Shown here in pieces: positions 5,000-32,000 of a stretch of DNA of 32,000 bases (within the stretch, counting starts at the first letter, position 1; the number at the start of each line of letters is the position of its first letter). Source of the DNA: Delftia acidovorans NBRC 14950 (GTDB lineage: Bacteria > Pseudomonadota > Gammaproteobacteria > Burkholderiales > Burkholderiaceae_C); contig NZ_BCZP01000007.1 in the NCBI RefSeq assembly GCF_001598795.1, positions 270,001 to 302,000 on the forward strand, written 5' to 3'. The notes beneath the pieces were generated by a model. The model was not told the DNA's origin and ran no database searches. It was given only the letters and a program-made list of their open reading frames with translations. Position numbers and translations under genes: made by a program.

Positions 5000-5272
5000 A
5001 TGATCGTCTGTGTATGCCGCCGGGTTTCCGACCGTGAGATCGCACGCCACGCTCATGCGGGCATGAGCTTTGACGAGATCCAATTCGAATTGGGTATCGC
5101 CATGCAGTGCGGCCGCTGCGAGAGCTGCGCCCGGGATGTGGTGGCGCAATGCTGCGCCAGCCAGCCCGTGGCGGCCATCCACAACGAGGTCGCGGCCCAG
5201 ACCGTCCAGCTTGCCAACAACATTCTGGAGAGCAAAGCATGGTCCTCCTCTCAGCACTTGTCGGCAGCCTGA
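5000..5272 (+). CDS. bfd: bacterioferritin-associated ferredoxin, (2Fe-2S)-binding
   Basis: MIVCVCRRVSDREI...MQCGRCESC shows the Bfd C-x-C...C-x2-C cysteine pattern. Its position directly upstream of tonB-exbB-exbD is typical. Confidence 0.85.
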   Translation: MIVCVCRRVSDREIARHAHAGMSFDEIQFELGIAMQCGRCESCARDVVAQCCASQPVAAIHNEVAAQTVQLANNILESKAWSSSQHLSAA

Positions 5273-6816: not shown

Positions 6817-7230
6817 ATGGCATTCGGAACAATGGACGATGACGGCGAAGAGGTGATGAACGAGATCAACATGACGCCGCTGGTCGACGTCATGCTGGTG
6901 CTCCTGATCATCTTCATCATCACCGTGCCGGTGATGAAGCATTCGGTGAACGTGGACCTGCCCCGCGCCACCAACCAGCCCGAGGACGTCAAGCCCGCTA
7001 CCGTGCGCCTGGCCGTCTCCGCCGATGGCCAGTACCACTGGAATGGCGTTGCCGTCAGCGATACGCAGTTCGAGGAGAACCTCAAGGCCGAGGCGGCCAA
7101 GGAGCCGCAACCTGACCTGCACATCCAGGGTGACAAGGAAGTCCGCTACGAGCGCGTGGCCCAGGCCATGGCTGCCGCACAGCGTGCAGGCGTGCGCAAG
7201 ATCGGCTTCGTGACGGACCCGGCCAAGTAG
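6817..7230 (+). CDS. exbD: biopolymer transport protein ExbD/TolR
   Basis: 137 aa. INMTPLVDVMLVLLIIFIIT is the ExbD transmembrane motif. The gene starts 4 nt after the exbB stop. Confidence 0.92.
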   Translation: MAFGTMDDDGEEVMNEINMTPLVDVMLVLLIIFIITVPVMKHSVNVDLPRATNQPEDVKPATVRLAVSADGQYHWNGVAVSDTQFEENLKAEAAKEPQPDLHIQGDKEVRYERVAQAMAAAQRAGVRKIGFVTDPAK

Positions 7231-16347: not shown

Positions 16348-17508
16348 TCAGCTTTGCGACGCGCGCGGCGAGTACAGGTTGGCAACGGTCTCGCCTAGCG
16401 GCCCGCCCACTCCGCCAGCCAGCCTGTCGCGCACGGACAGCGGCAGCAGCGGGAAGACCAGCTCGGCAAAGCGGTAGGCCTCTTCCAGGTGCGGATAGCC
16501 GGACAGCACAAAGGTGTCTATGCCCAGGTCCGCGTACTCCTTGATGCGGTCGGCCACGGTCTGCGCATCGCCCACCAGGGCCGTGCCCGCGCCCCCGCGC
16601 ACCAGGCCCACGCCGGCCCAGAGGTTGGGGCTGATCTCCAGCTCGGCCCGCGTGCGGCGGCTGCCGCCGGCATGCAGGGCGGCCATGCGGCGCTGGCCTT
16701 CCGAGTCCATGCGCGCGAAGGCGGCCTGGGCCTGGACCACGGTCTCGTCCTTGAGGCGGCTGATCAGGCGATCGGCATCGGCCCAGGCCTCATCCTCGGT
16801 CTCGCGCACGATGACGTGCAGGCGGATGCCGAACTTCACGCTGCGGCCATGGCGCGCCGCCTTCTCGCGCACATCGGCAATCTTTTTGGCCACCTCGGCC
16901 GGGGGCTCGCCCCAGGTCAGGTAGGCATCGACCTGCTCGGCGGCCAGGTCGTGCGCGGCCTCGGACGAACCGCCGAAGTACACGGGCGGATACGGCTTTT
17001 GCAGCGGCGGGAACAACAGCTTGGCGCCCTTGACCGAGAGGTGTTCACCTTCGTAGTCGAGCGTGCCGCCCTCATGGCTGCGCTCAAGGATCTCGCGCCA
17101 GATGCGGATGAACTCGGCCGATTGCTCGTAGCGCTGCGCATGGTCGAGGAAGACGCCGTCGCCCTCCAGCTCGGCGCGGTCGCCGCCCGTGACCAGGTTG
17201 ATCAGCAGCCGCCCGCCCGACAGGCGGTCGAACGAGGCCGCCATGCGCGCCGCCAGGCTAGGCTGGTGCAGGCCGGGACGCACGGCGACCAGGAACTTCA
17301 GGCGCTTGGTGACCGGAATCAGGCTGGAGGCGACGACCCAGGGGTCCTCGCAGGAGCGGCCCGTGGGAATCAGCACGCCCTCGTAGCCCAGGCTGTCGGC
17401 CGCGATGGCGACCTGCTTGACATAGTCGTGGCTGAGCGGGCGGGCGCCCTCGGCCGTGCCGAGGTAGCGGCTGTCGCCGTGGGTGGGAATGAACCAGAAA
17501 ACCTGCAT
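16348..17508 (-). CDS. ssuD: FMNH2-dependent alkanesulfonate monooxygenase
   Basis: [21 protein letters not shown]... is the characteristic SsuD N-terminus. 386 aa of the luciferase-like monooxygenase family. Confidence 0.92.
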
Positions 17509-17546
17509 GCGCTGCTCCAGTCAGGGGACGGAATCGAGGAAGGAAA

Positions 17547-18602
17547 TCAAAGGGCGGAAGAAGGCCGTGCCGCCGCAGGCTCGGCCAGCCGCGCGTACTC
17601 GGCCGCCGAGGGCCGCCAGACGATGTCGGCCACCTGCACCTGGCGCGGAATCAGGCCCAGCCGAAAAAACGCATCGGCCACGCGCTGCTGGTCCACCACG
17701 GTCTGCGCAGCCAGCAGGCCCACGGGGGAGCTGGGCCGGCGCGCAATGAAGCGGCTGACCACCGCCGCATCCAGACCGCTGAAGCCGGCCACCAGGGCCA
17801 CGGCCTCCTGGCGCGCGCTCTGAGCCAGGCGATCGGCGCGCGTGAGCTCGTCGAACAGCGCGCGCAGCACCTGCGGATGGCGCTCCACCAGGCCGCGAGA
17901 GGCCAGGTAGAACGAGGCGTTGCCCGACAGGCCTTCGCCATTGGCCAGCACGCGCGGGCGAATCGCCAGCTCGGTGGCCGCGTAGAACGGGTCCCAGATG
18001 GCCCAGGCATCCACGCTCTTGCGCTCGAAGGCGGCGCGCGCATCGGCCGGGGCCAGGTACACGGGCTGGATCTCGTTCCAGGCCAGGCCCGCCTTGTCCA
18101 GCGCACGCACCAGCAGGTAATGGGCGCTGGAGCCTTTTTGCAGCGCCACGCGCCGGCCCTTGAGGTCGGCCAGGGCGCGCAGCGGCGAGTCCGACGGCAC
18201 GAGGATGGCCGAGCTTTCGGGCTTGGGCGGCTCGGCACCCACGTACAGCAGGTCGCGGCCCGCGGCCTGGGCAAAGACCGGGGGTGAATCGCCGGTCAGG
18301 CCGAAATCCAGGCTGCCGGCGGCCAGGGCCTCCAGCAGCTGGGGGCCGGCCGGAAACTCCAGCCAGCTGACCTTGGTGCCCGCAAAGCGCTTTTCCAGCA
18401 CGCCTTGCTGCTTGAGGATGACCAGGTTGACGGCTGACTTCTGGTAGCCGATGCGCAACTGCTCGGGCCCGGCCACGGCGGCCGGCGTCTCGGCGCGTGC
18501 GTACTGGCCGGCCAGGCTCCAGCTGAAGGCGGTGGTGCCCAGCAGTTGCAGGGCCTGGCGGCGCACGCGGTCCAGGCGGGGCTTCTTGGAATTGGCATTC
18601 AT
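17547..18602 (-). CDS. ssuA: aliphatic sulfonate ABC transporter substrate-binding protein
   Basis: 351 aa of the NMT1/SsuA-type binding-protein family (LRIGYQKSAVNLVILKQQGVLEKRF...). It has an Arg-rich signal and AAGGAG upstream. Confidence 0.85.
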   Translation of the reverse strand: MNANSKKPRLDRVRRQALQLLGTTAFSWSLAGQYARAETPAAVAGPEQLRIGYQKSAVNLVILKQQGVLEKRFAGTKVSWLEFPAGPQLLEALAAGSLDFGLTGDSPPVFAQAAGRDLLYVGAEPPKPESSAILVPSDSPLRALADLKGRRVALQKGSSAHYLLVRALDKAGLAWNEIQPVYLAPADARAAFERKSVDAWAIWDPFYAATELAIRPRVLANGEGLSGNASFYLASRGLVERHPQVLRALFDELTRADRLAQSARQEAVALVAGFSGLDAAVVSRFIARRPSSPVGLLAAQTVVDQQRVADAFFRLGLIPRQVQVADIVWRPSAAEYARLAEPAAARPSSAL

Positions 18603-18625
18603 GGTGCGGACTCCTTGCAGTGGGC

Positions 18626-19636
18626 TCAGGGGCGCGACGCGATCAGGTCCACCGGCGCGGCATGCAGCAGGTTGAGCTTGCGGGGGATGAGCTTGAGCTC
18701 GAAGAAGGTGTCGGCGATCTGCTGCTGCTCGGCCAGGATCTCGCGCGTCACGGACGAGGTGCCGAAGCGGGCACGGCTCAGGTACAGCTCGGTGATGGAC
18801 TTGTCCAGGCCCAGGATGCTGGACAGCTCGGCGGCAGCGGCCGTCTGGTTCTTCGAGGCCCAGCGGTCAATCCCATCGACCTCTTCGATGGCAATGCGCA
18901 GCACATCGGCATTGCGCGTGGCGAAATCGCGCGAGGTGAAGTAGTAGGCGCGGTTGTTGACCACGCCCGTGGCATCGGCCAGCAGGCGGGCGTCCAGCGT
19001 CTTTTGGGCGGCAGCCAGGAAGGGGTCCCAGATCAGCCAGGCATCGACGGAGCCGCGCTCGAAGGCGGCGCGCGCATCGGCCGGCGCCAGGAAGACGGAC
19101 TGCACATCGCCGTACTTCAAGCCATGCTTTTCCAGCAGCTTGACCAGGAAGTACTGCACGTTCGAGCCCTTGTTGTAGGCCACGCGCTTTCCCTTGAGGT
19201 CCTGCACGCTGCGGATGGGCGAATCCTTGGGAACGATCACCGCCTCCAGCCCGGGGCGCGGCACGGTGGCGCCCGCATAGACCAGGGGTGCGCCTGCAGC
19301 CTGCGCAAAGATGGGTGGGGCCTCGCCCACATCGCCGAAGTCGATGGAGCCCACGTTCAGCGCCTCCAGCTGCACGGGGCCGGCGTTGAACTCGATCCAG
19401 CGCACGGATACGCCCAGCGGCGCCAGCCGCTTTTCCAGCGTGCCCCGGCTCTTCAGGATGGACAGCCAGCCCTTTTGGTGGCCCACGCGCAGCACGCGGT
19501 CGCCCGCCTTGTCCTGGGCCAGGGCCGGGCCGCCCACCGTGGCGACTGCTGCGGCAAGGCCCGCGCCCAGCAGTTGGCGTCGGCGCCAGTTGGCTGTGTG
19601 TCGGGGGAAAGAATCAAACGAGACCATGACGGACAT
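18626..19636 (-). CDS. second SsuA-like sulfonate/sulfate-ester substrate-binding protein with a Tat-type signal
   Basis: A paralogue of the downstream ssuA (LRVGHQKGWLSILKSRGTLEKRL..., ...FLAPADARAAFERGSVDAWLIWDPF). The signal reads WRRRQLLGAGLAAAVA. The start is the ATG at 19636 or 19627. Confidence 0.8.
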   Translation of the reverse strand: MSVMVSFDSFPRHTANWRRRQLLGAGLAAAVATVGGPALAQDKAGDRVLRVGHQKGWLSILKSRGTLEKRLAPLGVSVRWIEFNAGPVQLEALNVGSIDFGDVGEAPPIFAQAAGAPLVYAGATVPRPGLEAVIVPKDSPIRSVQDLKGKRVAYNKGSNVQYFLVKLLEKHGLKYGDVQSVFLAPADARAAFERGSVDAWLIWDPFLAAAQKTLDARLLADATGVVNNRAYYFTSRDFATRNADVLRIAIEEVDGIDRWASKNQTAAAAELSSILGLDKSITELYLSRARFGTSSVTREILAEQQQIADTFFELKLIPRKLNLLHAAPVDLIASRP

Positions 19637-19661
19637 CCTTGGAAGAGTGGTGCGTGGCTCA

Positions 19662-19677
19662 GGCAAAGCGCTGCCCA
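19662..19677 (-). promoter_or_regulatory. weak sigma54-like -24/-12 element upstream of the ssu operon
   Basis: The minus strand reads TGGGCAG-CGCT-TTGCC. The GG-N10-GC spacing is correct against the consensus TGGCACG-N4-TTGCW, but the positions flanking GG do not match. It sits 26-41 nt upstream of the first ssu start codon. Confidence 0.25.
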
Positions 19678-19736
19678 TGCATGCGCGCGGCATGCAGCCA
19701 GAAAACAAAAAAAGGGAAGGCGGAGCAAGGGGCGGC

Positions 19737-19762
19737 CGCCTGCAGGGCCGGGCCTGCAGGCG
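19737..19762. repeat. 10-bp-stem palindrome CGCCTGCAGG-GCCGGG-CCTGCAGGCG
   Basis: Two copies of the self-complementary octamer CCTGCAGG, 6 bp apart, extended by CG/CG. It lies about 100 bp upstream of the ssu start. On the minus strand a T7GT4 tract (19700-19716) follows about 20 nt later. Confidence 0.6.
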
Positions 19763-19843
19763 CACCGCACGGAGTCGTCAGGTGCTACATCGCCGGCTGG
19801 CGAAGGCCATGGTCTCGAAGCGAAGAAAAGAGCTGGATGCCAC

Positions 19844-19879
19844 CACGCCTGCCACGCCTGCCTTGCCTGCCACTCCTGC
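19844..19879. repeat. four tandem degenerate 9-mers (CACGCCTGC CACGCCTGC CTTGCCTGC CACTCCTGC)
   Basis: Read directly from the sequence. A fifth exact CACGCCTGC lies at 19892-19900. The repeats sit in the sbp-ssu intergenic region. Confidence 0.8.
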
Positions 19880-20037
19880 CTTGTGCATCCGCACGCCTGC
19901 CTGCGCCGTGCGGCGCGCGGCCTGCAAAGAGTGGCGGGAGGTCAGGAAGATGGACATGGCGGATCGTGGGGGTTGGCAGGGGTCTGGGACAGCGGGTGAA
20001 TCAGTGGGTGGGCGCCGGCCGGGCCGGCGCGCTGCAC

Positions 20038-21060
20038 TCACTTCTTGGTGTAGATCTGGTCGAAGCTGCCGCCGTCGGCAAAGTGGTCCTTGTCAGCCTT
20101 GGCCCAGCCGCCAAAGGCCTGGTCGATGGTGACCAGCTCCAGCTTGGGGAACTTGTCCGCAAACTCGGCCTTGACCTTGGCATCGGTGGGACGGTAGTAG
20201 TTGCGGCCGGCGATGCGCTGGCCTTCCTCGGAGTACAGGTACTTCAGGTACTCCTCGGCCACGGCGCGCGTGCCCTTCTTGTCCACGACCTTGTCGACCA
20301 CGGCCACCGAAGGCTCGGCCAGGATGGACAGCGAAGGCACGACGATCTGGAACTTCTCGGGACCGAACTCCTTGAGTGCCAGGAAGGCCTCGTTCTCCCA
20401 GGCCAGCAGCACATCGCCCACGCCGCGCTGCACGAAGGTGATGGTGGCGCCGCGCGCGCCGGTGTCCAGCACGGGCACGTTCTTGAACAGCTTGCCGATG
20501 AAGTCCTTGGCCTGTGCGTCGCCGCCGTACTTGCGCTTGGCGAATTCCCAGGCGGCCAGGTAGTTCCAGCGCGCACCGCCGCTGGTCTTGGGGTTGGGCG
20601 TGATCACCTGCACGCCGGGCTTGACCAGGTCGTCCCAGTCCTTGAGGTTCTTGGGATTGCCCTTCTTCACCAGGAAGACGATGGTGGAGCTGTAGGGCGC
20701 CGAGTTGTGCGGCAGGCGCTTTTGCCAGTCGGCCTTGAGCAGGTTGCCGTTCTTGACCAGGGCGTCGATGTCGCCGGCCAGCGCCAGCGTGGCCACGTCG
20801 GCGTCGATGCCGTCGATGATGGAACGCGCCTGCTTGCCCGAGCCGCCATGCGACTGCTTGACGCTCACGTCCTGGCCGCTCTTGGCCTTCCAGTGCTTGG
20901 CGAAGGCCTGGTTGTACTCCACGTACAGCTCGCGCGTCGGATCGTAGGAGACATTGAGCAGTTGCACCGACTGGGCCAACGCCGGCAGAGCCGACAGGGT
21001 CAAGCCCGCGATCAGGCCGGCGGCGACAGGAAACTTGATAAAGTGGCGGCGAATTTTCAT
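20038..21060 (-). CDS. sbp: sulfate (thiosulfate) ABC transporter substrate-binding protein
   Basis: 340 aa with a signal peptide. [31 protein letters not shown] is the Sbp/CysP signature region. Confidence 0.9.
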
Positions 21061-21477: not shown

Positions 21478-21495
21478 GCCGCTTCGCGCCTTTTC

Positions 21496-21533
21496 ACCGC
21501 CCCCGTCGCAACGCGCCGGGGGCGGTTTCATTT
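21496..21533 (+). terminator. rho-independent terminator after yggX
   Basis: ACCGCCCCCG-(11 nt)-CGGGGGCGGT, a perfect 10-bp stem followed by TTCATTT. Confidence 0.7.
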
Positions 21534-21649
21534 GCGGTGCCGCAAACGGCCGCCGCCCAGAGACCGCCTACAATGCCCGCCTTCTTGCGCTGGACGGCGC
21601 AGTGGCCGCACACCCTGCGGCGCGGGCCGGTCTTCACCCGAGGTTTTCC

Positions 21650-22318
21650 GTGCTTCCATCCGTCTCCCTGCTGGAATCGTTCCAGGCATCGCAGTTCACC
21701 GTCATGCTGGTGATCTACCTCGTGGCCATCACGGCCGAAGCCATGTCGGGCGCGCTGGCGGCGGGCCGGCGCAACATGGACATCTTCGGCGTGGCCGTGA
21801 TCGCCTTCGTCACCGCGCTGGGCGGCGGCACCATCCGCGACATGGTGCTGGGCCACTACCCCATCGGCTGGACGCAGCACCCTGAATATGTCTACCTGGT
21901 CATCTCGGCCGGGCTGCTGACCATCGTCGTGGCGCGCCACATGCACCATCTCAAGCAGGTCTTTCTGCTGCTGGACGCCATGGGGCTGATCGCCTTCTCG
22001 CTGATCGGCTGCAACGTGGCGCTGGAGCTGGGCTATCCGCCCGTGGTGGTGGTGATGTCGGGCATGCTGACCGGCATCAGCGGCGGCATTCTGCGCGACG
22101 TGCTGTGCAACCAGGTGCCGGTCGTCTTCCGGCGCGAGCTGTACGCCAGCGTGTCGCTGGCCGTGTGCCTGCTGTTCCTGGGACTGCGCACGCTGGAAGT
22201 GGGCTCCAACCTCAGCACCGTCGTCTGCTTTGCCGGCGGACTCACGCTGCGCCTGGCTGCCATCCGCTTCAAGTGGCGGCTGCCCGTGTTCTCCTACCAG
22301 CAGCGCTGGGAGGAGTAG
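21650..22318 (+). CDS. trimeric intracellular cation channel (TRIC/UPF0126, YadS-like) family protein
   Basis: Two UPF0126 repeats, each with a glycine motif (LGGGTIRDMVLG and ISGGILRDVLCN). The GTG start at 21650 has GAGG upstream. An alternative ATG is at 21704. Confidence 0.8.
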   Translation: MLPSVSLLESFQASQFTVMLVIYLVAITAEAMSGALAAGRRNMDIFGVAVIAFVTALGGGTIRDMVLGHYPIGWTQHPEYVYLVISAGLLTIVVARHMHHLKQVFLLLDAMGLIAFSLIGCNVALELGYPPVVVVMSGMLTGISGGILRDVLCNQVPVVFRRELYASVSLAVCLLFLGLRTLEVGSNLSTVVCFAGGLTLRLAAIRFKWRLPVFSYQQRWEE

Positions 22319-22333
22319 TTCTGCCCCTTGCCC

Positions 22334-24274
22334 ATGTCCGAACCCATTGACTGGCTGCCCGATGGCACGCCCTACAGCCCGCGCTTCGGCGACCGCTACC
22401 ACAGCGAACTCGGCGGCCTGGACCAGGCCCGTCACGTCTTTCTGGGCGGCTGCGGCCTGCCGGCGGCCTGGGCCGATGCGCCGCAATGGCGCATCCTGGA
22501 GACCGGCTTCGGCTTCGGCCTGAATTTCCTCGTGGCCTGGGAAGCCTGGAAGACCGATCCCCGGCGCCCAAGGCTGCTGCATTTCGTCTCGGCCGAGGCC
22601 TTTCCCGTCAGTGCAGACGCCATGCGCCAGGCCCTGCCCCGGGAACCCGGCCTGCGTGCGCTGGCCGAGCAACTGGCGGCCCGGTTCCAGGGCCTGCTGC
22701 CCGGCGTGCACCGCCTCGCCTTCGAGCAGGGGCGCGTGCTGCTGACGCTGTACATCGGTGATGCCCAGGCCATGCTGCGGCGCCAGCAGCTCACGGCCGA
22801 CAGCATCTACCTGGACGGCTTCACGCCGGAACTCAACCCCGAGCTCTGGAGCGCCGAGACCCTGCGCGCGCTGGCGCGCCATTGCCGGCGCGGCACACAG
22901 CTGTCCACCTGGTGCGTGGCGCGCACGGTGCGCGATGGCCTGGCCCAGCACGGCTTTCAGGTCCGCAAGGTGGATGGCGTGCGCCCCAAGCGCCACAACC
23001 TGCATGCCGTGTTTGACCCGGCCTGGCAACCGCGTGGGCCGCGCGGGCCGCGTGCACAGCCGCAGGAAGCCATCACCCCACGGCGCTGCATGGTGCTGGG
23101 TGCAGGCATCGCCGGCGCGGCCGCCGCCGCCAGCCTGTCGCGCCGTGGCTGGCAGGTCACCGTGCTGGATGCTGCCGACGCGCCTGCAGCGGGCGCCTCG
23201 GCCCTGCCCGCGGGCCTGTTCTGCCCCCATGTCTCGCCCGATGACAGCCTGCTGTCCCGCCTGAGCCGCGACGGCGCACGCCTGACACTGGCGCAGCTGC
23301 AAATGCTCTCCGGCCAGGGCCTGCTGCAACCGGGCACGGACTGGTGCGATACCGGCGTGCTGGAGCATGGCGTGGAAGCCGCCCCGCGGCTGCCGCGCGA
23401 CTGGCAATCCCCCGGCCCGGGCGACCACTGGAGCCGGCCCGCAAGCGCCGATCAACTCTCGGCGGCCTGCCTGCCTGCCGACGCCCCGGCCTGCTGGCAT
23501 GCGCAGGCCGGCTGGGTGCGCCCGGCGCGGCTGGTGCAGGCGCAGCTGGCGCTGCCCGGCGTGCGCTGGCAGGGCCGCGCCTGCGTGGCGCGTCTTGCAT
23601 GCACCGACACAGCCGGTGGCGCGCCCGTCTGGCAGGCCCTGGATGCACAGGGCAATCTGCAGGCCGAGGCTGAACTGGTCGTTATCGCACTGGGCCCCGC
23701 AACGAATACGCTGCTGGAGCACAGCCTGGGCGCCCAGGCCGCCTGGCCGCTGCAGCCCATACGCGGCCAGGTCAGCTGGGATGTGCACACCCCGGCCAGC
23801 GCACATGCCATGCCGCCCTTCCCCGTCAACGGCCATGGCAACCTGGTGCCTGCCATGCCGCTGCCCGGCGATGCAGCCGGGCCAGGCTGGGTCATGGGAT
23901 CGACCTTCGAGCGCGACCAGACCGCGCTGCCGCCAAGTCCCGAAGACCAGGCCGCCGCCCATGCAGCCAATGGCGCCAAGCTGGCGCAGCTGCTGCCAGG
24001 TGCCTATCAGGGCCTGCAAGGCTTCTTCGACGCGCCACCGCGCGCCACCTGGGGCGCCGTGCGCGTGGCCTCGCCAGACCGGCTGCCCGTGGTCGGACCG
24101 GTGTCCGATCAGGCTCCCGGCCTGTGGGCCCTGACGGCCATGGGCTCGCGCGGGCTCACGCTGTCGCTGCTGTGCGGCGAGCTGCTGGCAGCACGCCTGC
24201 ACGACGAACCGCTGCCCCTGGATGCCAGGCTGGCGGCTGCCCTGGCCAGCGAGCGCCTGGGCCGCAGGCGCTGA
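22334..24274 (+). CDS. mnmC: bifunctional tRNA (mnm5s2U34) methyltransferase / FAD-dependent cmnm5s2U34 oxidoreductase
   Basis: The N-terminal MnmD domain shows ILETGFGFGLNFL and YLDGFTPELNPELWS. The C-terminal FAD domain shows MVLGAGIAGAAAAASLSRRGWQVTVLD. 646 aa. Confidence 0.88.
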   Translation: MSEPIDWLPDGTPYSPRFGDRYHSELGGLDQARHVFLGGCGLPAAWADAPQWRILETGFGFGLNFLVAWEAWKTDPRRPRLLHFVSAEAFPVSADAMRQALPREPGLRALAEQLAARFQGLLPGVHRLAFEQGRVLLTLYIGDAQAMLRRQQLTADSIYLDGFTPELNPELWSAETLRALARHCRRGTQLSTWCVARTVRDGLAQHGFQVRKVDGVRPKRHNLHAVFDPAWQPRGPRGPRAQPQEAITPRRCMVLGAGIAGAAAAASLSRRGWQVTVLDAADAPAAGASALPAGLFCPHVSPDDSLLSRLSRDGARLTLAQLQMLSGQGLLQPGTDWCDTGVLEHGVEAAPRLPRDWQSPGPGDHWSRPASADQLSAACLPADAPACWHAQAGWVRPARLVQAQLALPGVRWQGRACVARLACTDTAGGAPVWQALDAQGNLQAEAELVVIALGPATNTLLEHSLGAQAAWPLQPIRGQVSWDVHTPASAHAMPPFPVNGHGNLVPAMPLPGDAAGPGWVMGSTFERDQTALPPSPEDQAAAHAANGAKLAQLLPGAYQGLQGFFDAPPRATWGAVRVASPDRLPVVGPVSDQAPGLWALTAMGSRGLTLSLLCGELLAARLHDEPLPLDARLAAALASERLGRRR

Positions 24275-24285
24275 GCCGTTGAACC

Positions 24286-24308
24286 GCCCGGCCGCTGAAC
24301 GGCCGGGC
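24286..24308 (+). terminator. GC-rich hairpin after mnmC (weak T tail)
   Basis: GCCCGGCCG-CTGAA-CGGCCGGGC, a perfect 9-bp stem, followed by ATTCAC rather than a T-run. Confidence 0.4.
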
Positions 24309-24365
24309 ATTCACACAACGGCCTGAAAGAAAACCCGAGTCTTCCCGCAGACGGTTTTTGTCACT

Positions 24366-24396
24366 CGTTATGTTTGTTAGTGCATATCGCTAGAAT
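24366..24396 (+). promoter_or_regulatory. ModE-operator-like sequence abutting a TAGAAT -10 box, upstream of the receptor operon
   Basis: CGTTATGTTTGTTAGTGCATATCG (24366-24389) has the same 24-nt length and CG...CG ends as the E. coli modA operator as I recall it (CGTTATATTGTCGCCTACATAACG). The outer arms match 7/8 and 7/9. It fits TATAT-N7-TAYAT with one mismatch per half. TAGAAT lies at 24391-24396. Confidence 0.35.
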
Positions 24397-24464
24397 CCGG
24401 AACCTGTTTTCAAAAGGAAACAACCAGCCGCTCCCCGCGTTCAACCACACAAGAACCTGAAACC

Positions 24465-26546
24465 GTGATCCGCCAGCCCCGCTCCTGCGCTCCCGCATCC
24501 TCACCCGCCCTCTGCTCACCCTCGTTCCGCCTTCGCTCCGCACTGACACACGCCCTGCTGCTCGCAGGCCTGGCCGCCAGCACGCAGGCGCAAGCCCAGG
24601 TCGAGGCCCAATCGGGTGCGCCTGCAGCCCAGGCTTCGCAGACCTTCCAGTTGGGCACGGTCGATGTGCACGGTGCGCGTGATGAGGCGCAGGCCATATC
24701 CGGCGATGAACAGCGACTGGGCGCCGACGAGATGCGCCAGCGCAATGCCGACACCGTGGCCGACGCCGTGCGCCTGCTGCCGGGCGCCACGCTGTCGCGC
24801 AACAATCGCAACGAGGAAATGATCTACCTGCGCGGCTTCGATCCGCGCCAGGTGCCGGTCTTCGTGGACGGCGTGCCGCTGTACGGGCCCTATGACGGCT
24901 ATGTGGACTTCGGCCGCTTCACCACGTTCGACCTGTCCGAGATCCGCGTGGCCAAGGCTGGCGCATCGCTGATGTATGGCCCCAATACGCTGGGCGGCGC
25001 CATCAACCTGGTCACGCGCAAGCCCGTCAAATCCTTCGAGGGCGATGCGCGCATCGGCGCAGGCGCAGGCGGCGAACGCAAGGCCGCCGTGAACCTGGGC
25101 GGCAACCTGGGTACCTGGTACTACCAGCTTGGCGCCTCCTACCTGGACGCGGACAGTTTTCCGCTGCCCAAGGGCTTCAAGGACTTCAAGAAGCAGCCCA
25201 CCGACACGGGCAACTACCGCGACAACGCCTACCGCACGGACAAGCGGCTGTCGTTCAAGCTGGGCCTCACGCCCAATGCCACGGACGAATACGCGCTGGG
25301 CTATGTGCGCCAGGAAGGCGAGAAGGGCAACCCCGTGTATACCGGCAGCGCCACGGGCAAGAACGTCATCCGCTACTGGCGCTGGCCCTACTGGGACAAG
25401 GACAGCGTGTACTTTCTGAGCACCACGCGCATCAATGCCGACAACCTGCTCAAGACACGCATCTACCACGACACCTACCAAAACGGCCTGGACATGTACA
25501 CGGACGCGAGCTACACGCGCCATGACCCCACCAGCAGCTACAAGGACGTGAGCCAGGGCGCCAGCATCGAGTGGGCCAACTACAGTTTCAAGGGCCATGC
25601 GCTGCGCCTGGGCGCGCACTACAAGATCGACGAGCACACCGATGCCGCCTCGGCCAAGGACCCCAGCAAGCACTACCGCGACGTGACGCGCTCCCTGGTG
25701 ATCGAGGACACGATCTCCCTGGCCGAACGCTGGAGCCTGAACCTGGCGCTCAGCCACGACCAGCGCGATGCGCGCGAGGTCTACCAGTGGCCCACGGGCT
25801 CCGCCAGCGCCACCAATGGCGTGGCCAAGCTCGGCTATACGCTGGGCGGTGGCAGCGAGGCGTATTTCATCGCCTCGCACAAGACGCGCTTTCCCACCAT
25901 CAAGGACCGCTACTCGGCACGCATGGGCACGGCCCTGGCCAACCCCGACCTGCAGCCCGAGACGGCCAACCACCTGGAGCTGGGCGTCAGCGGCTCACCC
26001 TGGCAGGGTGGCCAGGGCCAGGCCGCGCTGTTCTACAGCCGCGTGCGCAACCAGATCCAGACCGTGGTCGTGGCCTCGGCCGAATGCGGCGGCACCACCT
26101 GCAACCAGGCGCAGAACGTGGGGCGCACGCGCAACATCGGCATGGAGCTGTCCCTGGCCCAGCAACTGTCCGCGCAATGGGGCGTGAACGCCGGCTACAC
26201 CTACCTGAACCGCCGCAATACCAGCGACTCCAGCATCACGCTGACCAACACGCCGCGCCACCGCCTGCTGGCCGGCGTTCAGTGGCGTCCGCTGGCGCAG
26301 TGGGAATTCAATGCCGAGGTCGAGACCGAGAAGGGCCGCTACGTGCCGCTGTCGGGCAGCGGCCAGCTGCAGACGCTCAAGCTGTCGGGCTACGGCATTG
26401 CCAACCTGCGCGCACGCTACAAGCCGCGCAGCGACATCACCGTGGACTTTGGCGTGGCCAATATCGGCGACAAGTGGTACCAGTTCGATGACGGCCTGCC
26501 CATGCCGGGCCGCAGCTGGTATGTCAACCTGGGCTATCGCTTCTGA
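24465..26546 (+). CDS. TonB-dependent outer-membrane receptor
   Basis: 693 aa with a GTG start. It has a signal peptide (...LLLAGLAASTQAQA) and plug motifs (FQLGTVDVHG, MIYLRGF, VFVDGVPLYGP, YGPNTLGGAINLVTRKP). The beta-barrel ends ...WYVNLGYRF. Confidence 0.9.
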   Translation: MIRQPRSCAPASSPALCSPSFRLRSALTHALLLAGLAASTQAQAQVEAQSGAPAAQASQTFQLGTVDVHGARDEAQAISGDEQRLGADEMRQRNADTVADAVRLLPGATLSRNNRNEEMIYLRGFDPRQVPVFVDGVPLYGPYDGYVDFGRFTTFDLSEIRVAKAGASLMYGPNTLGGAINLVTRKPVKSFEGDARIGAGAGGERKAAVNLGGNLGTWYYQLGASYLDADSFPLPKGFKDFKKQPTDTGNYRDNAYRTDKRLSFKLGLTPNATDEYALGYVRQEGEKGNPVYTGSATGKNVIRYWRWPYWDKDSVYFLSTTRINADNLLKTRIYHDTYQNGLDMYTDASYTRHDPTSSYKDVSQGASIEWANYSFKGHALRLGAHYKIDEHTDAASAKDPSKHYRDVTRSLVIEDTISLAERWSLNLALSHDQRDAREVYQWPTGSASATNGVAKLGYTLGGGSEAYFIASHKTRFPTIKDRYSARMGTALANPDLQPETANHLELGVSGSPWQGGQGQAALFYSRVRNQIQTVVVASAECGGTTCNQAQNVGRTRNIGMELSLAQQLSAQWGVNAGYTYLNRRNTSDSSITLTNTPRHRLLAGVQWRPLAQWEFNAEVETEKGRYVPLSGSGQLQTLKLSGYGIANLRARYKPRSDITVDFGVANIGDKWYQFDDGLPMPGRSWYVNLGYRF

Positions 26547-26568
26547 AGCACGGACTGGCCCTGAATCC

Positions 26569-27444
26569 ATGGAACCGCTCTGCCCCGATCGCCGCCGCCT
26601 GCTGGGCGCCCTGCCCGCGCTGGCAGCCCTGAGCGGCTGCGCCGCCCAGCCGGCCGAACCTGCCAGCGTGAACGTGGCCGTGGTCGGCGGCCTGTCGCTG
26701 TGCGGTGTGTGGCCGCACCTGGCCGACGCGGCGGGCCGCAGCCTGGGCCTGTCCGTGCGCACCGCCGTTGCCGCGCCCAAGGAGGGCGTGATCCCCGCCA
26801 TGGCCCAGGGCCGCGCCCAGCTGCTGCTCATCCACGCCAGCGATGAAGCCATGTCGCTGGAGGCTGCCGGCCTGGCATCGGCCGCGCGGGTCTGGGGCTG
26901 GAACGAGCATGTGTTCGCCGGCCCAGCGCATGATCCGGCCGGGGTGCGCGGCGCGGCCGATGGCGTGGAGGCCATGCGCCGCATCGTTGCCAGCGGCTCG
27001 CCCTTCATCGCGCTGCGCGACCCCGGCAGCTATACCGTGGTCCAGCGGCTGTGGCGCCGCGCCGGCATACGGCCGGACGCCCGCTGGCTGCGCGCCGACA
27101 CCGGGCCGCGCCCCCAGGCCGTGCTGCAGTTGGCGGCCGAGCTCCAGGCCTATGCCGTGGTGGGCCATATCCCGCTGCATTTCGGCAAGATGGGCGCGCC
27201 CGGCATCGAGCTGCTGCTGCACGGCGACCCGCTGATGCGCCGGCCCTATGTGCTGCTCACGCTCGGGCCGCGCCATCCGGCCGACGCTGGCCAGCGCCGC
27301 AGCGCGCAACGGCTGGCCGAGCATCTGCTGTCCGCACCGGGCCAGCAGGAACTGGCGCTGGCCAATGTGGCAGCCGGAGGTCCCTGGATCTTCGGGCGCG
27401 ACAGCATGCCCCTGGTCAACGACACCGGCGGCGGCCAGGAGTAA
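26569..27444 (+). CDS. Tat-signal lipoprotein with a type-2 periplasmic-binding-protein fold, TupA (tungstate-binding)-like
   Basis: MEPLCPDRRRLLGALPALAALSGC carries a twin-arginine motif and a lipobox. The body is collinear with TupA-type proteins as I recall them (...LLLIHASDEA..., NEHVFAGPAHDPAGVRG, FIALRDPGSYTVVQRLWRRAGI). The canonical TTTS and SGT oxyanion motifs are replaced. Confidence 0.6.
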   Translation: MEPLCPDRRRLLGALPALAALSGCAAQPAEPASVNVAVVGGLSLCGVWPHLADAAGRSLGLSVRTAVAAPKEGVIPAMAQGRAQLLLIHASDEAMSLEAAGLASAARVWGWNEHVFAGPAHDPAGVRGAADGVEAMRRIVASGSPFIALRDPGSYTVVQRLWRRAGIRPDARWLRADTGPRPQAVLQLAAELQAYAVVGHIPLHFGKMGAPGIELLLHGDPLMRRPYVLLTLGPRHPADAGQRRSAQRLAEHLLSAPGQQELALANVAAGGPWIFGRDSMPLVNDTGGGQE

Positions 27445-27477
27445 AAACCTGCCTGGATCCCACAAGCACCGCATGCC

Positions 27478-28026
27478 ATGAACTCACCTGCCACCCTGCC
27501 CCTGGCCGCCCTGGTCCATCCCGACGACGAGCATGCAATGGAGCTGCTGCTCGAACGCGTGGCACGCCGCCTGCAAGGCGCGGGCTGGCGCGTGGGCGGC
27601 CTGGTGCATCGCCAGGACCGCTATGCCAACGGCAACAAGCGCATGCAGTTGTTCGACCTGCGCAGTGACCGCCAATTCGAGCTGTCCCAGGACCTGGGCT
27701 GCGCCTCGCGCGCCTGCAGTCTCAACCCCCAGGCCCTGGCCCAGGCCAGCGCCGTGCTTCGCCAGGCGCTGGACGATGGCGTGGATCTGGTGGTAATCAA
27801 CCGCTTCGGCATCGTCGAGGCCTCGGGCCAGGGCTTTGCCGCAGAATTCGCGGCCTTTGTCGAGGCCGGCACGCCCGTGCTCACGGCCGTCGCGGCCCGC
27901 CATCTTGAAGACTGGCGCAGGTACACCGGCAGCCTGCATGCCGAGCTGGCAGCCGATGAGGTGCAGATCGAGCAATGGTGCCAGGCACAGCTTGAGCGCC
28001 GTGGCTGCGCCAGCCCCATCCCCTGA
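27478..28026 (+). CDS. DUF2478-family protein (P-loop-NTPase-like fold without a Walker A motif)
   Basis: 182 aa. It has a Walker-B-like DLVVINRFGIVEASGQGF and the family-typical ELSQDLGCASRACSLN, but no GxxxxGK[ST]. There is no signal peptide, so it is presumably cytoplasmic. Confidence 0.6.
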   Translation: MNSPATLPLAALVHPDDEHAMELLLERVARRLQGAGWRVGGLVHRQDRYANGNKRMQLFDLRSDRQFELSQDLGCASRACSLNPQALAQASAVLRQALDDGVDLVVINRFGIVEASGQGFAAEFAAFVEAGTPVLTAVAARHLEDWRRYTGSLHAELAADEVQIEQWCQAQLERRGCASPIP

Positions 28027-28031
28027 TTTTC

Positions 28032-29093
28032 ATGACCGATCTTCTGTTCACCCGCCGCCGCTGGCTGGGCCAGGCCATGGCGGCACTGGCCTCATCGGCT
28101 CTTGTTCCCGGCCATGCCCAGGCAACCACGATTGCCGCCCGCATGGGACAGATGCCGGACCCTGCCAGGCTGCGCCGCGTATTCGCGGCGGGACCGCCCG
28201 CAGGCGTGCTGGTGGCCACGCTTGCACCGCACAAGCTGCTGGGCTGGCCCCAGCAGCTGGACGATGTCTCGCGCGCCTATCTGGGGCCCACGTTGCAGGC
28301 GCTGCCGCACCTGGGCCGCCTGTCCGGGCGCGGCAGCACCATGCCGCTGGAATCGCTGCTGAAGCTGCAGCCCGACCTGGTGCTGGACGCCGGCACGGCC
28401 GATACCACCTATATCTCGGCCACCGAGCGGCTGGCGCGCCAGACCGGCCTGCCCTGCGTGCTGATCCAGGGCTCGCTGGCCGACCACGCACGCCAGTTGC
28501 GCGAGGTCGGCGCCTTGCTGGGCGAGGCTGCGCGTGGCGAAACCCTGGCCCGCCATGCCGATGCCGTGGCAGCACTGGCGCAGCGTGCCACCCAGGGCAT
28601 GGCACCGGCCGAGCGCCCGCGCGTCTATTTCGCGCGCAGCGCCAATGGGCTGGAAACAGGGCTGGCGGGCTCCATCAATGTGGAAGCCGTCGAGTACGCG
28701 GGCGGGCGCAATGTGGCCGCCGATGCAGGGCGCGGCGGGCTCACGCGCGTGTCCATGGAGCAGATCCTGGCCTGGGACCCGCAGGTCATCGTCACGCAGG
28801 AACCCGGCCTTGCCGAGCGCATGCGCCAGGACCCGCTGTGGCGCGGCGTGGCCGCCGTGCGCTCGGGCCGCGTGCACTGCGCGCCGGTCTGGCCCTTCGG
28901 CTGGCTGGATGGTCCGCCCGGCGTCAACCGGCTGATCGGTGTGCGCTGGCTGCTGGAAAAGCTCCACCCGCAGGCGCCGGCACTGCAGGGACTGCCGCCG
29001 TTGGAACGCGAGGTGCGCGACTTCTACCGCCTGTTCTACGGCGCCGACCTGTCGCCCGCAGCGCTGGGCAGGCTGATGGAGACCGCGCGTTGA
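28032..29093 (+). CDS. ABC transporter substrate-binding protein, iron-siderophore/cobalamin (cluster A, Peripla_BP_2) type, Tat signal
   Basis: 353 aa with the signal MTDLLFTRRRWLGQAMAALASSALVPGHAQA. Family-like segments include LLKLQPDLVLD, RVYFARSANGLETGLAGS and ILAWDPQVIV. It lies directly upstream of the FecCD-type permease. Confidence 0.75.
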   Translation: MTDLLFTRRRWLGQAMAALASSALVPGHAQATTIAARMGQMPDPARLRRVFAAGPPAGVLVATLAPHKLLGWPQQLDDVSRAYLGPTLQALPHLGRLSGRGSTMPLESLLKLQPDLVLDAGTADTTYISATERLARQTGLPCVLIQGSLADHARQLREVGALLGEAARGETLARHADAVAALAQRATQGMAPAERPRVYFARSANGLETGLAGSINVEAVEYAGGRNVAADAGRGGLTRVSMEQILAWDPQVIVTQEPGLAERMRQDPLWRGVAAVRSGRVHCAPVWPFGWLDGPPGVNRLIGVRWLLEKLHPQAPALQGLPPLEREVRDFYRLFYGADLSPAALGRLMETAR

Positions 29094-30106
29094 TGCCTGC
29101 CACAGGCCGCCGCCTGGGGTGGGTGCTTGCGCTGGCCTTGCTGGCCGCCGTGCTGCTGTGGGCGCTGGCGGTGGGTCAGTTCTCCATCGCGCCGCAGCAG
29201 CTGTGGCAGTCGCTTCTGGCGCGCGCAATGGGCACTGCCTCGCCCTTGTCCGCCAGCGCCGAGACCGTGCTCTGGAACATCCGCCTGCCGCGCATCGCCG
29301 CAGGCCTGGCCGTGGGCGCCACGCTGGCGGCGGCAGGCGCAGCCTACCAGGGCATGTTCCGCAACCCGCTGGTCTCGCCCGACATCCTGGGCGTCTCGGC
29401 CGGTGCCGGCCTGGGCGCGCTGCTGGGCATCTTCCTGGGCTGGTCCATGGCGGCCGTTCAGGCGCTGGCCTTTGGCGGCGGGCTGGCCGCCGTGGCCGTG
29501 GTGGTGGCCATCAGCGCCAGCGTGCGCCGGCATGACCCGGTGCTGGTTCTGGTGCTGGCCGGCATTGCGCTGGGCGCGCTGCTGGGCGCGGGCATCGCAC
29601 TGGTCAAGACGCTGGCCGACCCCAATACGCAGTTGCCATCCATCACCTTCTGGCTCATGGGCGGCCTGAGCGCCGTGACCCTGCCCGAGCTGGCTGCCGC
29701 GGCACCCGTGATGCTGTGCGCCCTGCTGCCCCTGCTGCTGTTACGCTGGCGCATCAACCTGCTGGGCCTGCCTGACGAGGAGGCGCTGGCCCTGGGCGTG
29801 CCCGTGGCACGCCTGCGCCTGCTGCTGGTGGCCTGTGCCACGCTGGGCACGGCGGCGGCCGTGTCGCTGGCCGGCATCGTCGGCTGGGTGGGGCTGGTGG
29901 TGCCGCATGTGGCGCGCCTGCTGGTCGGCCCCAATTTCGTGCGCCTGCTGCCGGCCTCGGCCCTGCTGGGCGCGGGCTTCGTGGTTGCGGCCGACACCCT
30001 GGCGCGCAGCGCGACGCGCATCGAGCTGCCGCTGGGCATTCTCACGGCCCTGGTCGGCGCGCCCTTCTTTCTCTACCTGCTGTCGCGCACGGGCCGCAAT
30101 GACTGA
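29093..30106 (+). CDS. FecCD-family ABC transporter permease
   Basis: 337 aa starting at the ATG at 29093, which overlaps the upstream TGA (TGATG). It is a typical FecCD/BtuC protein (IRLPRIAAGLAVGATLAAAGAAYQGMFRNPLVSPDILGVS..., ...ILTALVGAPFFLYLL). Confidence 0.88.
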   Translation: MPATGRRLGWVLALALLAAVLLWALAVGQFSIAPQQLWQSLLARAMGTASPLSASAETVLWNIRLPRIAAGLAVGATLAAAGAAYQGMFRNPLVSPDILGVSAGAGLGALLGIFLGWSMAAVQALAFGGGLAAVAVVVAISASVRRHDPVLVLVLAGIALGALLGAGIALVKTLADPNTQLPSITFWLMGGLSAVTLPELAAAAPVMLCALLPLLLLRWRINLLGLPDEEALALGVPVARLRLLLVACATLGTAAAVSLAGIVGWVGLVVPHVARLLVGPNFVRLLPASALLGAGFVVAADTLARSATRIELPLGILTALVGAPFFLYLLSRTGRND

Positions 30107-30893
30107 AATGCCGACGGCGCCCGTGCTGCAGACGCTGGCCCTGGCCACGGGCCATGGGCGCCGGCGCGTCAGCCAGGGGCTGGACCTGGCCATCACCGCA
30201 GGCGAGGTGCTGTGCCTGCTGGGCCCCAACGGCTGCGGCAAGACCACGCTGTTCCGCACCGTGCTGGGCCTGCTGGCGCCGCTGGCCGGAGAGGTGCGCG
30301 TGCAGGGCCAGCCCGTGCACAGCTGGCCGCGTGCCGAGTTTGCGCGGCGCGTGGGCTATGTGCCCCAGGCGCAGGCCGGCGTCTTCGGCTTCGAAGCGCT
30401 GGACATGGTGCTCATGGGCCGTGCCGCGCGCCTGCCTGCGCTGGCCCGGCCTTCAAGTGCCGACCGTGCCCTGGCGCGGGGCTGCCTGGAGCAGTTGGGC
30501 ATCGCCCATCTGGCGCTGCGCCCCTATACCGAGCTGAGCGGCGGCGAGCGCCAGCTGGTGCTGATCGCACGCGCCCTGGCCCAGGAGCCCGCGCTGCTGG
30601 TCATGGACGAGCCCACGGCCAGCCTGGACTTCGGCAACCAGATCCGCGTGCTGGACCAGATTGCCGCGCTGCGTGCACGCGGCATGGCCGTGCTGCTGTC
30701 CACCCACCAGCCCGAGCATGCGCTGCAGGTGGCCGACCGCATCGCCCTGCTGGGCCGCGGCGGCCTGCAGGCCTGCGGTGCGGCGGCGCAGGTGGCGACA
30801 CCGGCCGCGCTGGCTGCGCTCTATGGGGTGAGCGAGGCGGCGGTGGCGGCGCGGCTGCCGGCAGACCTGGACAGGCGCAGCGTTGGCATCTAG
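30099..30893 (+). CDS. ABC transporter ATP-binding protein (FecE/BtuD type)
   Basis: 264 aa. Walker A GPNGCGKTT, signature LSGGERQ and Walker B LLVMDEP are present. The start overlaps the permease stop by 8 nt. Confidence 0.88.
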   Translation: MTEMPTAPVLQTLALATGHGRRRVSQGLDLAITAGEVLCLLGPNGCGKTTLFRTVLGLLAPLAGEVRVQGQPVHSWPRAEFARRVGYVPQAQAGVFGFEALDMVLMGRAARLPALARPSSADRALARGCLEQLGIAHLALRPYTELSGGERQLVLIARALAQEPALLVMDEPTASLDFGNQIRVLDQIAALRARGMAVLLSTHQPEHALQVADRIALLGRGGLQACGAAAQVATPAALAALYGVSEAAVAARLPADLDRRSVGI

Positions 30894-31933
30894 TGCTTGG
30901 GAACGGGCAGCCTCCAGCCAGGCGGGGGCTGCAGCGGGCGACCTGCGTCCTTGAGCATGCGCTCCAGCAGTTGCTGTTCGCTGTGGATGGAGGGATCGGA
31001 CAACAGCCGGACAAACGGATCGCCACCCGCCTGCATGCTCAGTGGGTTGGACTCGTGCATCAGCCAGTCCAGCTGGCGCCGCCGGGACTGCGCTGCAGCG
31101 CGCTCGGCCGGGGTTCTGGCAAGCCAGCGCCGTATCGCCAGCCCAAAGGCCTCATCCAGCACGGTGGATGCGCGTTCCGTCATCAGGTGCGCCACATGCA
31201 GGCAGTCGGCATCTCGCGCCGGGGCATCGCCCCGCTTTTCGGGCTTGCAGGCATCGATCAAGGTCCGGTAGCCGGGCAGTTCAAAGGCCGCCCAGATGCC
31301 CATGGCCGTGATGGCAGCGCCTTCCTCGGGGCGGTAGGGCTGCCCACCTCCAAACGCCTGCAACTCCTCGGCCGTGGGCGGGTGTTTCAGCAGCGCCGAC
31401 TGCATCCAGCGCACGCCCTCATACATGTGCAGGTCCGCATAGCGGCTGTCGCGCGCGGCAGTCAGCAACTCCTGCGGCCCCAGCGCCTGCCACATCAGCG
31501 CAGTGAGATTGCTGGGTTCCAGCGCCAGCCAGCGGCGCGCAGCCTGCAACCGCAACTCGCCTTCACGTTCAGGCGCCCTGGCAGCCAGCAGTTGGTAGGC
31601 CAGCACGTCCTGCCCGGCCCGCTCCAAGGCGGCCTGGCGCCATTGCGGGGCTCGGCTGTCGGCATCCTCTTGTAGGAAGGGTGGGACCGACAGATTGATC
31701 AGGATGGCCGCAAAGGCCAGATCGCGCCCGCTGCCGGAACCGGCCAACTGCGCCGCCACGCGATGCAGATACGCATCCCAGGCCGATTCCTGTGCGGATT
31801 CGTCGGGTTCAGGCGTGTCAGCTGTGTGCGCTGCTGACAACGGGGACGGCGGCTGTGCCGGCTTCTGGACCTGCGCCTGAGCAGCAGTTGCCAACGCCAA
31901 GGCCAGCCCGATGGTGGCACAACGGTTTCGCAT
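30890..31933 (-). CDS. exported protein of unknown function
   Basis: 347 aa starting at the ATG at 31933, with GGAGG 8 nt upstream. The signal peptide is MRNRCATIGLALALATAAQAQ, followed by a Pro/Glu-rich linker and an Ala/Leu/Arg-rich helical body with two Cys. I recognise no family. Its stop overlaps the convergent ATPase stop (CTAG at 30890-30893). Confidence 0.6.
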   Translation of the reverse strand: MRNRCATIGLALALATAAQAQVQKPAQPPSPLSAAHTADTPEPDESAQESAWDAYLHRVAAQLAGSGSGRDLAFAAILINLSVPPFLQEDADSRAPQWRQAALERAGQDVLAYQLLAARAPEREGELRLQAARRWLALEPSNLTALMWQALGPQELLTAARDSRYADLHMYEGVRWMQSALLKHPPTAEELQAFGGGQPYRPEEGAAITAMGIWAAFELPGYRTLIDACKPEKRGDAPARDADCLHVAHLMTERASTVLDEAFGLAIRRWLARTPAERAAAQSRRRQLDWLMHESNPLSMQAGGDPFVRLLSDPSIHSEQQLLERMLKDAGRPLQPPPGWRLPVPKH

Positions 31934-32000
31934 TCTGAAATCCTCCCTCTGGCCGGAAAGCATATCGGCCGCTCATGCGTTTGACATGCCCGGCCCCACA

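Follow-up and report, generated by a model that had tools for sequence, protein, structure and literature searches.

This report concerns a six-gene operon, preceded by a ModE-type operator, in a 32,000-nt stretch of DNA from Delftia acidovorans NBRC 14950 (positions 270,001 to 302,000 of contig NZ_BCZP01000007.1), referred to below, at its full length, as the window. As judged from sequence comparisons, the operon is probably a molybdenum or tungsten (Mo/W) acquisition system under the control of that operator, a reading to which we assign a probability of roughly 0.7, and it is a strong candidate for active Mo/W uptake across the outer membrane. Mo/W uptake had been proposed in an initial annotation of the DNA sequence, and the predicted function is now supported by the homology of the importer to MolABC, by a conserved ModE box and by linkage to mod genes.

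All six genes lie on the + strand. The gene for a TonB-dependent receptor (693 aa; 24465-26546; the GTG start is uncertain) is followed by those for a divergent TupA-like periplasmic binding protein (291 aa; 26569-27444), a cytoplasmic DUF2478 protein (182 aa; 27478-28026), a MolA-like cluster-A periplasmic binding protein (353 aa; 28032-29093), a MolB-like FecCD-type permease (337 aa; 29093-30106) and a MolC-like ATP-binding cassette (ABC) ATPase (264 aa; 30099-30893). By the coordinates of the open reading frames (ORFs), the first four genes are separated by 22, 33 and 5 nt, and the last two junctions are overlaps, TGATG at 29091-29095 and one of 8 nt at 30099-30106. Every spacing agrees with the tight, co-directional packing described initially. 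Because of this spacing and these overlaps, the genes are likely to be transcribed as one unit. A sigma-70/terminator scanner detected no terminator after the ATPase gene. The gene identities assigned at the outset also agree with a Pfam search of the six proteins, the likeness to TupA coming from Protein Data Bank (PDB) sequence and fold matches. In NCBIfam, no family above cutoff was obtained for any of the six.

The ModE-type operator and its genomic context

The consensus for Escherichia coli ModE is ATCGNTATATA-N6-TATATANCGAT, as quoted in PMC545781. An inverted repeat of this type, CTCGTTATGTTTGTTAGTGCATATCGCT, is situated at 24364-24391 (no strand assigned). Its core, CGTTATGTTTGTTAGTGCATATCG at 24366-24389 (CGTTAT-N12-ATATCG), is the sole match to CGNTAT-N12-ATANCG in 32 kb, where 0 would be expected. 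Compared with the E. coli consensus, the operator has 14 matches in 20 positions, which 2 of 500 shuffles of the region also reach, and it is the only 28-mer in the window with at least 13 matches. Taken alone, the box in the window provides modest evidence for ModE control, and it is the comparative data that carry the argument.

For that comparison, 33 species-representative genome loci encoding the TupA-like protein were fetched with flanks of ±10 kb (individual loci are cited below by their L numbers). Gene content was determined from tblastn, Pfam and precomputed gene calls; a crude caller based on G+C content at third codon positions often chose antisense ORFs in this high-G+C DNA. A ModE-type box (core CGnTAT-N11-13-ATAnCG) was found in 28 of the 33 loci, mostly directly upstream of the receptor gene or the TupA-like gene, and the genera in which it was observed include Delftia (with Delftia-like metagenome-assembled genomes, MAGs), Comamonas, Acidovorax, Oryzisolibacter, Dechloromonas, Methylophilus, Zoogloea and Thiocystis. 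Across the approximately 830 kb of fetched sequence, such boxes were nearly restricted to the promoters of receptor and TupA-like genes. The consensus derived de novo from 26 distinct sites, ATCGTTATATACAATTGTATATAACGAT, is that of E. coli ModE (PMC545781), and a weight matrix derived from these sites picks out, in addition, the region between mop and modE in L044, which had no part in the training set.

The window shares GCTAGAAT or ATAGAAT, directly 3′ of the box, with L007-L012, L014 and L018. The -10-like hexamer TAGAAT, at 24391-24396 on the + strand of the window, abuts the operator and is conserved in relatives; it may serve as part of a promoter. The succession of box and conserved TAGAAT in Delftia and Comamonas fits repression by promoter occlusion. 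A sigma-70 promoter scanner found no canonical promoter upstream of the operon and no -35 match for TAGAAT. The initial annotation had placed a ModE-operator-like sequence across the promoter. The site itself is real, unique and conserved, but for its overlap with a promoter the evidence is the conserved TAGAAT. The same annotation had reported neither a Fur box nor a cobalamin riboswitch upstream, and this was borne out by both scans: Rfam gave no match at the gathering threshold over the whole window, nor at E<=1 in 24150-24650, and the best Fur-box score, 11/19, is typical of shuffled sequence. What precedes the orthologous clusters is not Fur boxes or B12 riboswitches; ModE-type boxes are found there instead.

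Between the operator and the start codon, a leader segment, CCGGAACCTGTTTTCAAAAGGAAACAA at 24397-24423, is nearly identical in the window, L007 and L008 and absent in Comamonas; it had no Rfam match. Additional boxes were observed in three loci. In L025 (13143-14097; Methylophilus) and L040 (13202-14156; a metagenome contig), a second near-perfect ModE box (ATCGCTATATAC..GTATATAGCGAT) is situated downstream of the TupA-like/receptor pair and precedes a gene for a 285-aa PEP-CTERM protein, which may be a further member of a Mo-responsive regulon. In L019 (15072-19158; a Comamonas MAG), a second strong box (41 bits) occurs approximately 850 nt downstream of the six-gene operon, and beyond it lies a second FecCD/ATPase pair with 51-55% identity to the window proteins, which may represent a paralogous Mo-regulated importer.

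The full six-gene arrangement is kept in 15 Comamonadaceae-type loci. Of all 33 loci, 25 have a receptor gene no more than 400 nt from the TupA-like gene, and 15 have DUF2478; within the fetched flanks, a MolA-like gene was found in 24 loci and a FecCD gene in 23. It is apparent that mod genes recur near the operon, as emerged from the survey of co-occurrence with modE that had been suggested earlier. Ten of the 33 loci, Acidovorax and Comamonas MAGs among them, have full-length modE at a distance of no more than 10 kb, and these ten include four of the 15 six-gene Comamonadaceae-type loci (L015, L016, L017 and L020). Within the same distance, modB was found in six of the 33. Directly upstream of the receptor gene in L015 and L016 are modA (TIGR01256, 189 bits), modB and modC, with modE downstream (plus modD in L015), and in L039 and L044 the cluster abuts mop-modE-modA-modD-modB-modC. 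The Oryzisolibacter locus (L021) has a partial ModE/Mop match only, beside modB and modD.

Smaller modules were also found. In the Methylophilus and metagenome loci L025 and L040, the order is box, TupA-like gene, receptor gene and second box, and in Dechloromonas (L022) it is box, receptor gene and TupA-like gene; no cluster-A importer was found near any of these three modules. Such two-gene modules identify the pair of receptor and TupA-like protein as the conserved, Mo-linked core. In the Rhodocyclales loci L029 (8284-9893) and L044 (8379-10004), genes for a luciferase-like monooxygenase and a truncated globin lie between the ABC ATPase gene and the TupA-like gene, and DUF2478 is absent. 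The same globin, there gloA, is also part of a cluster in Acidithiobacillus ferrooxidans (PMC2631029).

Relationships of the operon proteins

The permease belongs to the FecCD family (284 bits in Pfam). Its best match in the PDB is MolB, HI1471 (2NQ2_A; E 5.1e-64), over residues 16-336 of both proteins; the next, the haem permease BhuU (6.5e-54), is ten orders of magnitude poorer, and MolB is better than BtuC by approximately 29 orders. The ATPase (ABC_tran) is likewise matched best by MolC, HI1470 (2NQ2_C; E 7e-41). For the cluster-A binding protein (Peripla_BP_2), the uncharacterised 4PAG (4e-31) and 4OVK are followed by MolA, HI_1472 (3PSA/3PSH; E 3.9e-14), which is the best functionally characterised match. 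In Haemophilus influenzae, MolBC-A is a low-affinity type II ABC importer of molybdate and tungstate, for which MolA is specific, and molB is repressed by molybdate (PMC4031551). The importer had initially been described as being of the siderophore/B12 type. That description holds at the level of the Pfam families (cluster A and FecCD), but the PDB matches are specifically MolABC-like, a relationship that was missed in the first reading and that strengthens the case for Mo/W. A B12 or haem importer was considered and rejected, since MolB and MolC are the better matches. Homology of the importer to MolABC is evident from these comparisons, and transport of Mo/W by it would be the corresponding prediction.

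The presence of two unrelated binding proteins with one importer had been noted as unusual. Both are indeed present here, but the arrangement has precedents in H. influenzae HI1469-1475, where modD and the gene for an unrelated binding protein of the ModA type lie together with the MolABC genes (PMC3928620), and in the 'Fe-Mo' cluster of A. ferrooxidans. The twin-arginine motifs ascribed to both binding proteins were found in their sequences: DRRRLLG, followed by the lipobox LSGC, in the TupA-like protein, and TRRRWLG in the MolA-like protein. The latter motif is conserved among the Comamonadaceae MolA-like orthologues; the lipobox cysteine is missing in the aligned Comamonas homologue of the TupA-like protein.

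In Pfam, the TupA-like protein has a weak match to SBP_bac_11 (22 bits, under the cutoff of 25). Its best PDB sequence matches are TupA proteins (3LR1, 1.8e-13; 5MY5, 6.6e-13). The same group gave the best fold matches to an AlphaFold2 model with a predicted local distance difference test (pLDDT) score of 88, at template modelling (TM) scores of 0.68-0.76; the top Foldseek matches were 3MUQ, 3LR1, 5MY5 and 3KN3, with target-normalised TM scores of up to 0.76. Both searches thus place the protein within the TupA/ModA-like group, as first proposed. In TupA of Desulfovibrio alaskensis, a TTTS motif faces the oxyanion site, and the pocket residues are R118, T124, D170 and H59 (PMC5517513). H59 is retained, as H89, and an invariant S154 takes the place of T124. 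At the position of TTTS, the protein has V39-G40-G41-L42, and VGGL is invariant across the family alignment. With that motif lost, canonical TupA was rejected as an identity. Also invariant in the family are W48, K71, R150, R224, R225 and H236, and H200 is found in at least 90% of members; this pattern of basic and aromatic residues is in keeping with an anionic ligand, which need not be a bare oxyanion. A cognate TupB/TupC or ModB had not been seen initially, and none was found here: neither the operon itself nor the 10 kb on either side of it in the Delftia locus contains a BPD_transp_1 gene, and tblastn of the window revealed no ModA, ModB or ModE homologue. Public annotation of the TupA-like protein is misleading, as it is widely named 'tungsten ABC transporter permease'.

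The DUF2478 protein matches PF10649 at 183.7 bits, against a cutoff of 22.3. Its AlphaFold2 model (pLDDT 92) has as best folds the alpha/beta nucleoside triphosphatases (NTPases) of the THEP1 type, 2I3B and 1YE8. In an alignment of 15 members, C80 and D60 never vary, an NxFG..E..G.G motif hardly does, and the Walker A motif GxxxxGK[ST] is absent from all 15. An active NTPase was rejected for want of that P-loop. The identical protein occurs in several NCBI genome assemblies and metagenome contigs, and public names for it include 'molybdenum ABC transporter ATP-binding protein' and 'nucleoside-triphosphatase THEP1'. A literature search on DUF2478 returned one paper only, which is unrelated. A distant homologue (44% identity) in L046 (7779-10507) adjoins a nitrogenase-family (Oxidored_nitro) gene and is convergent with a cluster encoding TonB-ExbBD, two receptors, Peripla_BP_2 and SBP_bac_1 proteins and a di-haem oxidoreductase.

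Both domains of a TonB-dependent transporter, the N-terminal plug and the 22-strand barrel, are present in the receptor, as Plug (PF07715, 74 bits) and TonB_dep_Rec_b-barrel (PF00593, 131 bits). It falls below every NCBIfam equivalog cutoff, and its PDB relatives (CirA, FpvA and BtuB) are distant only. The same window contains, 17 kb upstream of the receptor operon and on the + strand, tonB (TonB_C; 5374-6075), exbB (6091-6813) and, in the position of exbD, a 137-aa ORF (6817-7230), called exbD-like by that position. This tonB-exbB-exbD-like operon is a candidate energiser of the receptor. A 90-aa ORF with no family match precedes tonB (5000-5272, +).

In Delftia, the operon is flanked by mnmC upstream and by a convergent hypothetical gene, followed by cysI/H/D/N, downstream; as these flanking genes are unrelated, the operon appears to be a self-contained unit. 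The convergent 357-aa ORF (30890-31963, -) has a signal-like sequence at its N-terminus, and its stop codon overlaps that of the ATPase gene by 4 nt; no Pfam or NCBIfam match was found for it. Its called length across the Delftia loci L001-L006 is 347, 285 or 169 aa, or it is split into 201 + 141 aa, a variation that suggests a variable or decaying gene. Two long antisense ORFs, of 938 aa over mnmC (21494-24310, -) and of 316 aa over the TupA-like gene (26524-27474, -), were rejected as genes; they are stop-poor antisense frames in DNA of 70% G+C, and the sense frames match curated families. Sulfur-assimilation genes surround the operon in Delftia. Upstream (17500-21060) are two NMT1/sulfonate-type binding proteins and Sbp (20038-21060, -; 520 bits), and downstream of 31963 (14721-20090 in L001) are cysI, DUF934, cysH, cysD and cysN. 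This neighbourhood is not conserved in Comamonas or Acidovorax.

Alternative readings and a proposed mechanism

Several observations weigh against a Mo/W system governed by ModE. The closest characterised relatives of the receptor are siderophore, colicin and B12 receptors. The match of the cluster-A protein to MolA spans the C-terminal half only (residues 165-342), and two uncharacterised proteins match better. In the TupA-like protein TTTS is absent, R118 of TupA aligns with L149 (the invariant R150 is adjacent) and D170 aligns with G199/H200; with the motif lost and these residues out of register, the ligand may be something other than a simple oxyanion. The box in the window fits the E. 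coli consensus at no more than the 14 positions given above, and no canonical promoter accompanies it. No Delftia entry is present among the best 120 of 6095 protein matches to Acidovorax ModE, and ModE also regulates genes other than those for transporters.

If the operon were an ordinary TonB-dependent iron-chelate, haem or cobalamin system (FecBCD/BtuFCD-type), with the TupA-like and DUF2478 proteins as passengers, the Pfam families, which are generic for such systems, and the structural relatives of the receptor would be accounted for, as would the best sub-threshold NCBIfam matches, which are siderophore, hemin and B12 receptors and BtuC or a corrinoid ATPase. Those NCBIfam matches are all under cutoff, however, and the permease is far nearer to MolB than to BhuU or BtuC. 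With no Fur box above chance, no riboswitch, a conserved ModE box and mod genes nearby, we consider such a system improbable. Somewhat better placed, though still unlikely, is a bifunctional system for iron and molybdenum, in which the receptor and the cluster-A importer would take up an iron chelate, the TupA/ModA-like protein alone would handle molybdenum, and ModE would coordinate both metals for molybdoenzyme or nitrogenase assembly. The same prediction was made for a 13-gene cluster of A. ferrooxidans (PMC2631029), the Rhodocyclales loci L029 and L044 share its composition, including the luciferase-like and globin genes, and in L046 DUF2478 and a receptor/Peripla_BP_2/TonB cluster stand beside a nitrogenase-family gene. 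Against this, the nearest relative of the importer is MolBC, which imports Mo/W, and in L022, L025 and L040 ModE boxes precede two-gene modules of receptor and TupA-like protein with no cluster-A importer in their vicinity. The Delftia operon, moreover, has no Fur box, and there are no nitrogenase or globin genes in the 10-kb flanks of the Comamonadaceae six-gene form.

Import of some other anion (vanadate, sulfate or thiosulfate, chromate, or a phosphate or phosphonate analogue), with a likeness to the ModE box that is coincidental or belongs to a ModE paralogue, seems to us the least probable of these alternatives, and very improbable. The lost TTTS oxyanion motif would agree with it, as would the position of the Delftia operon among sulfur-assimilation genes (sbp, sulfonate-binding proteins and cysI/H/D/N). 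That neighbourhood is not kept in Comamonas or Acidovorax, however, whereas mod genes and ModE boxes recur across orders, and MolA is specific for molybdate and tungstate (PMC4031551).

The observed gene order, the homologies, the conserved operator-like site and the linkage to mod genes suggest the following scheme for Mo/W acquisition under ModE control. We infer that ModE binds the operator and represses; when molybdenum is scarce, it would dissociate from 24364-24391, allowing the six genes to be transcribed together. At the outer membrane, the receptor, energised by TonB-ExbBD, would import a scarce Mo/W species, perhaps as the free oxyanion, perhaps as a chelate or polymer. In the periplasm, the cargo would be captured by the TupA-like protein, which recurs beside the receptor also where the ABC importer is missing. 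The MolA-like protein would then dock on a type II importer resembling MolB2C2, by which the cargo would be delivered across the inner membrane to the cytoplasm. There, more speculatively, DUF2478, with its invariant cysteine, may receive or process it. The loss of TTTS, together with the use of a TonB-dependent receptor, leads us to lean slightly towards a cargo other than bare molybdate. In its most extended form, the proposal is that this would be the first dedicated TonB-dependent route for Mo/W across the outer membrane, in which ModE de-represses a receptor importing the oxyanion or a xeno-molybdophore complex, a new TTTS-less, TupA-derived family is the periplasmic partner and DUF2478 is a hitherto unrecognised cytoplasmic Mo/W-handling factor; we would give this extended form even odds.

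Significance and comparison with known systems

In Gram-negative bacteria, the passage of molybdate and tungstate through the outer membrane is assumed to be passive, and is thought to occur via porins. To our knowledge, active and regulated uptake at the outer membrane has been established for Fe, B12, Zn, Ni, Cu and lanthanides, and not for Mo or W. If the reading advanced here is correct, a TonB-dependent receptor controlled by ModE would fill this gap. It would help to explain growth at nanomolar or lower concentrations of molybdenum, which matters for nitrate reduction, formate oxidation and nitrogen fixation where waters and soils are poor in Mo, and would provide a first function for DUF2478 and for the TupA-like family. 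The hypothesis is open to direct testing in genetically tractable strains of Comamonas and Delftia.

The initial annotation held that this would not be a characterised pathway, and that assessment agrees with the literature searched, in which no experimental account of ModE-controlled, TonB-dependent Mo/W uptake was found; a preprint on Cupriavidus that names tungstate and a TonB receptor proved irrelevant. The nearest precedent is a prediction made in 2008, the 13-gene 'Fe-Mo transport cluster' of A. ferrooxidans, which includes two receptors, TonB-ExbBD, three binding proteins and a truncated globin, and which was reported with a Fur box, next to nif genes and without DUF2478 (Osorio et al. 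2008, PMC2631029). It resembles the Delftia operon in bringing together TonB-dependent receptors, a cluster-A importer and a Mo-type binding protein, and a link to Mo supply was proposed by its authors. The Rhodocyclales loci L029 and L044, with their truncated globin, are by composition of the same kind. The Delftia form differs in being a compact set of six genes behind a ModE box; both are known from sequence only. The components are thus of known kinds (a MolABC-type importer, a TupA fold, a TonB-dependent receptor and a ModE box), and it is their combination that is new.

With MolBC-A (HI1470/HI1471/HI1472), the likeness extends over the full length of the permease and the ATPase, which are nearest to MolB and MolC, and includes the match of the binding protein to MolA. 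As in the Haemophilus cluster, the importer is encoded beside an unrelated binding protein, which is of the ModA type there (PMC3928620). HI1469-HI1475, as listed in that source, differs in being without a TonB-dependent receptor, a TupA-like protein or DUF2478, and the regulator of molABC in Haemophilus is unknown, whereas the Delftia operon has a ModE-type box. The TupA proteins of D. alaskensis (5MY5) and Geobacter (3LR1) are closest to the TupA-like protein in sequence and fold, with H89 and S154 matching H59 and T124. In contrast to TupA of TupABC, the protein described here has VGGL for TTTS and no adjacent TupB/TupC, and its partner is a TonB-dependent receptor.

TonB-dependent metal uptake controlled by a metal regulator is represented by Zur-ZnuD, by NikR-FrpB4 and by the lanthanide system of LutH plus LutAEF. 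The design of the Delftia operon is similar to these, in that a metal-specific repressor would govern a TonB-dependent transporter together with a periplasmic binding protein and an ABC importer. It differs from them in the metal, in the accessory proteins and in the regulator, which here would be ModE.

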